Both the position numbers and the translations under genes were made by a program. From Escherichia coli (lineage in GTDB: Bacteria > Pseudomonadota > Gammaproteobacteria > Enterobacterales > Enterobacteriaceae), in assembly GCF_003334785.1 (NCBI RefSeq), contig NZ_QOWV01000003.1: a stretch of DNA of 64,000 bases. One strand, written 5' to 3'. Each line of letters opens with the position of its first letter. Within the stretch, counting starts at the first letter, position 1. The notes below the pieces were generated by a model. The model did not search any database, had not been told where the DNA came from, and saw only the letters and a program-made list of their open reading frames with translations. Shown piece after piece: positions 43,196 through 43,235 of this stretch.

Positions 43196-43235
43196 TTACA
43201 AAACTGTTTTAACTTTCTGTCAACAAGTTTTGTAA
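43196..43235. promoter_or_regulatory. inverted repeat in bdcA-bdcR divergent promoter region (candidate TetR-type operator)
   Basis: ttacaaaact ... agttttgtaa (10-bp arms, 20-bp spacer) plus internal palindrome aaaactgtttt; right arm abuts the bdcR ATG. Confidence 0.35.

Follow-up and report, generated by a model that had tools for sequence, protein, structure and literature searches.

Two putative BdcR operators in the intergenic region of the divergent bdcA and bdcR genes of Escherichia coli

The divergent genes bdcA and bdcR of Escherichia coli are separated by a short intergenic region that contains an inverted repeat, which the initial annotation of this DNA described as a plausible autoregulatory operator. 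This locus raises the question of which symmetrical elements in the region could be recognized by BdcR, and how they are placed relative to the promoters of both genes. The analysis covered a stretch of 64,000 nt of E. coli DNA (contig NZ_QOWV01000003.1), referred to below as the window, and positions are those of the window unless another source is named.

The bdcA-bdcR locus and its published promoters

The limits of bdcA and bdcR (Table 1) agree with those annotated by RefSeq in E. coli DNA of identical or nearly identical sequence. The two genes are transcribed divergently, and the distance between them, determined from the positions of the ATG codons (43164 on the minus strand for bdcA and 43235 for bdcR), is 70 bp, the same as that given in the initial annotation. 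The intergenic region is 71% A+T. The fragment 42400-43900 is 100% identical to the DNA of strain EC4 and 98.3% identical to that of K-12. Of 5426 complete E. coli genomes, 4816 carry the bdcA-bdcR locus; among the 4819 matches to this region in the E. coli genome collection, three are plasmid-borne, not chromosomal.

In E. coli USDA-ARS-USMARC-51688 (L018, positions 1-825), an IS1A insertion cuts the 3' end of bdcA, which is annotated as a pseudogene. The bdcR gene and the intergenic region of this strain are intact. DNA approximately 98-99% identical to the E. coli bdcA-bdcR region is also present in a 5-kb contig labelled as MAG: Lachnospiraceae bacterium (SFGN01000138.1; L001), and this E. 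coli-like contig is probably a binning contaminant in a metagenome-assembled genome. Further along the window, downstream of tabA (44548-46059), there is a 503-aa ORF encoding a product with a striking abundance of Asn, Lys and Ile; this composition points to A+T-rich, possibly foreign DNA.

The promoters of both genes have been described. Shimada et al. reported TTGACA-17-TGTAAT for bdcA and TTGATT-17-TACAAA for bdcR (PMC3946193). In a 2026 NAR paper, the bdcA/bdcR fragment corresponding to positions 43174-43223 was cloned, both RNAs were made in vitro, and the stretches between the -10 hexamers and the start sites were marked (PMC12825309 Table S2). As both published -10 hexamers map within 43194-43205, the left arm of the inverted repeat is the -10 region common to the two directions of a bidirectional promoter already described (PMC12825309 Table S2; PMC3946193), which the initial annotation had overlooked.

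A consensus promoter scan of the 42900-43500 fragment revealed no promoter-like site. The scan missed both published promoters because its rule needs A at the second position of the -10 hexamer; TGTAAT fails this rule and TACAAA is weak. The promoter coordinates used here were taken from PMC3946193 and PMC12825309, and not from the scan.

BdcR is cited in the literature as a negative regulator of bdcA. In a ChIP-seq compendium that included YjgJ, no binding model could be fitted for this protein (bioRxiv 2024.05.23.594371). Neither a BdcR operator nor data on direct binding of BdcR to bdcA-bdcR DNA were found in the literature searched, which excluded Ma et al. 2011 (Environ Microbiol).

The 5' leader of E. 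coli bdcR (43211-43234, i.e. 24 nt from the published start site) contains no recognizable Shine-Dalgarno sequence. AAGGAG is present in the bdcR leaders of Citrobacter, Raoultella and Klebsiella aerogenes, and in most orthologues the GTCAA of the bdcA -35 box overlaps an AAGG ribosome-binding motif.

Table 1. Coordinates of genes, promoter elements and symmetrical elements of the bdcA-bdcR region
Feature	Positions	Strand	Description	Source
bdcA (yjgI)	42451..43164	minus	237-aa SDR oxidoreductase; true start ATG at 43164	ORF list, RefSeq annotation
bdcA Shine-Dalgarno AAGGAG (plus strand CTCCTT)	43170..43175	minus	CCT invariant in the 12-locus alignment	sequence
PbdcR -35 TTGATT	43174..43179	plus	TTGA conserved in orthologues	PMC3946193, PMC12825309 Table S2
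S1 TGTAacatgcatTACA	43185..43200		predicted BdcR operator 1; extended palindrome ~43182-43203	
Left arm CATTACAAAACT	43194..43205		right half of S1 plus A-rich flank; holds both -10 hexamers	repeat search
PbdcA -10 TGTAAT (plus strand ATTACA)	43195..43200	minus	start site read as 43187	PMC3946193, PMC12825309 Table S2
PbdcR -10 TACAAA	43197..43202	plus	start site 43211 read from the marked tacaaaactgtttta (PMC12825309 Table S2)	PMC3946193
Small internal palindrome AAAACTGTTTT	43200..43210		5-nt arms, central T; S1 A-rich flank and PbdcR discriminator region	
PbdcA -35 TTGACA (plus strand TGTCAA)	43218..43223	minus	GTCAA nearly invariant in orthologues	PMC3946193, PMC12825309
Right arm AGTTTTGTAATG	43226..43237		T-rich flank plus left half of S2; holds bdcR ATG	repeat search
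S2 TGTAatggtcacTAAA	43231..43246		predicted BdcR operator 2; extended ~43228-43249; overlaps bdcR start codon	
bdcR (yjgJ)	43235..43828	plus	197-aa TetR/AcrR-family regulator	ORF list, RefSeq, PF00440, CifR homology

The inverted repeat and two conserved palindromes

Direct reading of the sequence confirmed the arms of the reported repeat, ttacaaaact (43196-43205) and agttttgtaa (43226-43235), together with the 20-nt spacer. The repeat search extended perfect complementarity to 12 nt per arm, with the spacer of 20 nt retained. The right arm had been described as abutting the bdcR ATG; as the complementarity reaches 12 nt, up to position 43237, this arm contains the start codon (43235-43237) and does not merely abut it. 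Relative to the bdcR start site, the right arm occupies +16 to +27, i.e. part of the leader and the start codon, and it lies just upstream of the bdcA -35 box.

The number of perfect 12-nt inverted repeats with a spacer of at most 40 nt expected in a Markov-1 random 64-kb window is 0.195, and at least one such repeat occurs in 14% of random windows of this length, while the actual window has two. When the local 101-bp sequence was shuffled, such a repeat appeared in 10 of 20,000 shuffles. The inverted repeat is real and locally improbable, and only mildly unusual across 64 kb. The other perfect inverted repeat of at least 12 nt in the window, AAAAAGTCTGGCTC-attatagg-GAGCCAGACTTTTT (40049-40082), is bordered by A and T runs in both flanks and resembles an intrinsic terminator acting in both directions downstream of the pyrBI operon.

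The small internal palindrome (Table 1), to which the initial annotation also pointed, is present in the sequence, but its significance did not hold up: 36% of the intergenic shuffles contain a palindrome with 5-nt arms, and the element is not conserved in the alignment of orthologous loci. It was rejected as a functional element and is attributed to chance.

The closest BdcR homologues outside Escherichia are 57-65% identical to the E. coli protein and are scattered among Proteobacteria. A scan of genome contigs with E. coli BdcR returned two Escherichia-type loci only. Twelve non-E. coli loci were used for comparison, originating from Citrobacter, Raoultella, K. aerogenes, Microvirga, Chitinasiproducens, Novosphingobium, Roseomonas, Tianweitania, Jiella and three metagenomic contigs. 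They represent the Alpha-, Beta- and Gammaproteobacteria, encode BdcR proteins 58-61% identical to that of E. coli and, with the E. coli locus, make a set of 13. A divergent gene encoding a 237-aa SDR is present in all 12 loci except that of K. aerogenes, and 59-78 bp lie between the genes.

All palindromes of the form 4-N(0-12)-4 were enumerated over the 12 loci. TGTA-N8-TACA ranked first, being exact in 11 of the 12 loci and occurring twice in six of them, and the runners-up were shifted registers of the same motif. Two palindromes of this type, named S1 and S2, are found at homologous positions in 13/13 loci, S2 being decayed in K. aerogenes. S1 is located approximately 20-25 bp from the SDR start, the position of S2 overlaps the start codon of the regulator gene in every locus, and the spacing from S1 to S2 ranges from 46 to 50 bp. 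The symmetrized consensus, tTTtTGTAGT-N4-ACTACAaAAa, is approximately 22 bp long, with a 16-bp core and half-site centers 12 bp apart. S1 of E. coli is the sole exact TGTA-N8-TACA within the 64-kb window, and S2 of E. coli has one mismatch in the core (TAAA). S1 is degenerate in two loci (ATTA...TACA in L010 and TTTA...TATG in L011).

A weight matrix constructed from the 12 non-E. coli loci only gave its two highest scores in the window to S2 (25.75 bits) and S1 (24.1 bits), and the third-best score among approximately 64,000 window positions was 8.27 bits. The sites used for this matrix were first picked by eye; the palindrome enumeration was independent of that choice. The intergenic columns that do not vary in the MAFFT alignment are those of the S1 and S2 cores, both -35 boxes, the ribosome-binding site of bdcA and the start codon. 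As the loci are homologous, the recurrences in 13 loci are not independent events, and part of the conservation of S1 could reflect promoter function, because the right half of this site is the shared -10 region.

The first codons of bdcA offered a candidate third site, with TGTA at 43146 in the E. coli sequence and TTTTGTAATGCA in those of Citrobacter and Raoultella. Compared by eye, it has two mismatches in the core and no counterpart in the other loci, and it was rejected.

With respect to the published promoter elements, S1 covers both -10 hexamers and the bdcA start site, and its center is placed at -5.5 from the bdcA start site and at -18.5 from the bdcR start site. The center of S2 lies at +27.5 from the bdcR start site and at -51.5 from that of bdcA, and the site spans +21 to +36 of bdcR.

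Arm-to-arm complementarity of the long repeat amounts to 12 nt in the strain analyzed, 11 nt in K-12 and 9 nt in the metagenomic locus L014. The initial annotation had made its proposal dependent on conservation of the repeat in orthologous loci; beyond Escherichia and L014, the complementarity is reduced to the 4-nt core. Even among close relatives the repeat varies, as position 43226 is polymorphic: it is A here and in a divergent Escherichia lineage (L002), and G in K-12, strain 51688 and contig L001, where the perfect repeat is shortened by this substitution to 11 nt. Position 43226, 5 bp away from the S2 core, belongs to a part of the motif with low information content.

As judged from the alignment, the conserved units of this region are two separate palindromes, and the reported arms are their inner halves. 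In Escherichia, the inner halves of S1 and S2 happen to match each other over the flanks plus the core. What remains of the proposed autoregulatory operator is the presence of BdcR-associated palindromes on the promoter elements of both genes, but not its anatomy of one site with 10-bp arms and a 20-bp spacer.

Two probable operators and the alternative readings of the symmetry

Based on these observations, we consider it likely that the intergenic region carries two separate BdcR operators, each composed of TGTA-N8-TACA with T/A-rich flanks. The motif co-occurs with BdcR orthologues across three proteobacterial classes. The sites themselves, their conservation and their position relative to the published promoter elements were observed directly; we infer the binding of BdcR to S1 and S2, its stoichiometry and the mechanism of repression.

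The first alternative is that the two 10-12-nt arms, 32 bp apart from center to center, form one long-range operator for a BdcR tetramer or for cooperating dimers, so that the symmetry between the arms would itself be functional. This would account for the perfect complementarity of the 12-nt arms, with its low frequency in the local shuffles, and for the 9-nt version retained in L014. However, the pairing of the arms falls to the obligatory 4-nt core outside Escherichia and L014, and K-12 already lacks one pair. The conserved pairing is the one between each arm and its own partner half-site 12 bp away. Moreover, with an S1-S2 spacing of 46-50 bp the helical phasing is not kept, and CifR, the characterized relative of BdcR discussed below, binds as one dimer per operator (PMC10827105). 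We regard a single long-range operator as unlikely.

A related suggestion concerns only the 12-nt extension found in Escherichia (44-bp span), which might itself be under selection for a DNA loop bridging two dimers, for cruciform extrusion under supercoiling, or for a start-codon hairpin in read-through transcripts originating upstream of 43194. We consider this improbable, though if it were true, the extension would add a control layer that is absent from the orthologous loci.

It may also be argued that no repressor site is involved and that the symmetry is a by-product of the promoter, the left arm being the overlapping pair of -10 hexamers and the right arm a decayed or duplicated copy of it (TGTAAT/TACAAA). 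Indeed, both published -10 hexamers are located in the left arm, the same hexamers are present in the right arm, and bidirectional promoters are called pseudo-symmetrical in the abstract of PMC12825309. On the other hand, the axis of the promoter (~43198.5) differs from that of the repeat (43215.5) and from those of S1 and S2, and the sequence around S2 offers no suitably spaced -35 box on either strand. In addition, the left half of S1 lies at the bdcA start site, where no hexamer is expected, yet it is conserved as a mirror of the right half.

A further argument against the promoter as the only source of symmetry comes from S2, which is situated in the leader and coding region of bdcR and has been kept from Alpha- to Gammaproteobacteria in the face of strong GC3 pressure. 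Its right half falls in bdcR codons 3-5, and the GC3 of codons 2-6 is 0-0.2 in GC-rich orthologues whose overall GC3 is 0.67-0.88. We regard the promoter-derived explanation as no more likely than the single operator. In K. aerogenes (L005), bdcA has been lost, S2 has decayed to TGTC...GACC, and the GC3 of codons 2-6 is 0.8; a perfect S1, ATATTGTAatgttggtTACAATAT, is kept upstream of bdcR (1900-2030 of this locus) without a divergent SDR gene. This single K. aerogenes case is a hint that S2 is important chiefly in loci with bdcA. In the divergent Escherichia lineage L002, the nucleotide differences amount to 6.3% in bdcA and 11.3% in bdcR, and the 70-bp intergenic region shows 0 changes.

Alternatively, the repeat could act in RNA, with a 12-bp stem and a 20-nt loop sequestering the bdcR start codon. 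Such a hairpin would be stable if both arms were transcribed (-14.4 kcal/mol, z = -3.8; 0 of 200 shuffles reached this stability). However, the bdcR start site at 43211 (PMC12825309 Table S2) lies within the loop, so the left arm is absent from the bdcR mRNA. The actual leader (43211-43270) is less structured than its shuffles (-1.8 kcal/mol, z = +1.8), the bdcA mRNA, which begins at 43187, extends in the direction opposite to both arms, and the stem is not conserved in orthologues. With the mapped bdcR start site inside the loop and an unstructured leader, the hairpin was rejected as a most improbable explanation.

Another regulator, e.g. a CRP-like protein, is an equally remote candidate for the palindromes. 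The core consensus of CRP sites is TGTGA-N6-TCACA, and S1 of E. coli (TGTAA-N6-TTACA) matches it by eye at 8/10 positions, but this reading was rejected on phylogenetic grounds: the motif follows BdcR into the Alpha- and Betaproteobacteria, where its inner bases (TGTAGG...CGCTACA) resemble the CRP core even less, S1 is retained upstream of bdcR in K. aerogenes in the absence of bdcA, and the invariant feature across the loci is the DNA-binding domain of BdcR.

BdcR as a CifR-like regulator and the predicted control of both genes

The reading of S1 and S2 as two separate BdcR operators can be compared with what is known about related repressors. The TetR_N helix-turn-helix domain (PF00440) was detected in the 99%-identical cluster representative of BdcR and in nearly all of its homologues. 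The best-matching proteins of solved structure are an uncharacterized Rhodococcus TetR (2I10) and CifR of Pseudomonas aeruginosa, the latter (PDB 6NSN/6NSM/6NSR) being the closest characterized BdcR homologue with a solved structure. The homology with CifR is clear: in a phmmer comparison (E=2.2e-18), BdcR residues 10-182 align with CifR residues 6-188.

The DNA-binding domain of BdcR is nearly invariant in the orthologues, with the motifs GRPR and GINPPSxYAAFGxK, and a common DNA specificity is therefore expected. In CifR, Arg6 enters the narrow A/T-rich outer minor grooves, and Pro44 and Pro45 are placed in the major groove (PMC10827105). The DNA-contacting CifR residues Arg6, Pro44/45, Tyr48 and Lys54 (in the numbering of that paper, which equals the chain numbering minus 2) correspond to R12, P50/P51, Y54 and K60 of BdcR, all of which are invariant in the 13 orthologues. 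TetR operators range in size from approximately 14 to 30 bp (PMC10827105), and both the 16-bp TGTA-N8-TACA core and the 22-bp extended consensus fall within this range.

BdcR resembles CifR in several respects. Both are TetR regulators transcribed divergently, with two sites in the intergenic region; those of CifR, between cifR and morB, are in inverted orientation and bind one dimer each (PMC10827105). The outer flanks of the sites are A/T-rich in both systems; S1 and S2 occur in every locus with bdcA, and the consensus of their flanks is TTT/AAA. There are also differences. The CifR operators are long (23-27 bp needed), very weak inverted repeats that diverge from each other (PMC10827105), whereas the predicted BdcR sites are clear palindromes with a common core. 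Moreover, the target of CifR is an epoxide hydrolase operon, and that of BdcR an SDR oxidoreductase. On the basis of homology, BdcR belongs with the CifR-like TetR regulators and, by analogy, presumably works like them.

Cys113 of BdcR (codon 43571-43573), located in the motif GC(M/L)V, aligns with the epoxide-sensing Cys107 of CifR and is invariant in the 13 orthologues. A matching cysteine is also found in the 2I10 protein. As Cys113 is both invariant and aligned with CifR Cys107, BdcR may sense an electrophile; by analogy with CifR, sensing might proceed through the cysteine, and the compound sensed might be acted on by BdcA, the partner SDR. If so, this would give bdcA and bdcR a physiological signal.

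The two-operator reading suggests how BdcR might control both genes. Each palindrome of approximately 22 bp has a size suited to one TetR dimer. A dimer bound to S1, which overlaps the -10 hexamers and the bdcA start site, would exclude RNA polymerase in both directions. A dimer on S2 would act as a roadblock to bdcR transcription, resulting in autoregulation and, as S2 sits just upstream of the bdcA -35 box, might also hinder upstream contacts of the polymerase at PbdcA. By analogy to CifR, TGTA would be contacted in the major groove by the Pro-Pro recognition helix of BdcR, and Arg12 of the invariant GRPR arm would insert into the narrow minor groove of the A/T-rich flanks, whose composition fits such a readout by arginine. 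Binding of a ligand would release BdcR from the operators. A strictly phase-dependent loop between S1 and S2 is disfavored, because their spacing varies from 46 to 50 bp.

Well-studied members of the family offer further points of comparison. Between the divergent tetR and tetA genes, the tandem palindromic operators tetO1 and tetO2 each bind one TetR dimer and control both genes. Two palindromic one-dimer sites in a short divergent intergenic region are also what is predicted for BdcR. The tet operators are, however, close together and both lie on promoter elements, whereas S1 and S2 are 46-50 bp apart, one of them is placed on a start codon, and their motif is different. The operator of AcrR is a 24-bp inverted repeat. 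AcrR, like BdcR in our proposal, is a TetR-family autorepressor divergent from its target, with an operator on the bidirectional acrA/acrR promoter, and it represses both acrA and acrR RNAs in vitro (PMC12825309). Unlike AcrR, described with one operator, the bdcA/bdcR region has two sites, the second of which is on the start codon of the regulator gene. The bdcA/bdcR insert used in the same study (43174-43223) includes S1 and lacks S2.

S1 and S2 represent a predicted TetR-type operator pair at a known two-way promoter, a pair that is apparently undescribed for BdcR. The understanding of the TetR-type switch as such is not changed by these sites; they are of use to those working on bdcA and bdcR and on bidirectional promoters. 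The predicted S1 and S2 give exact targets for mutagenesis and footprinting of BdcR, a listed repressor of bdcA. As S1 is placed on the shared -10 region of a recent model bidirectional promoter, the control of this promoter by its own repressor is directly testable.
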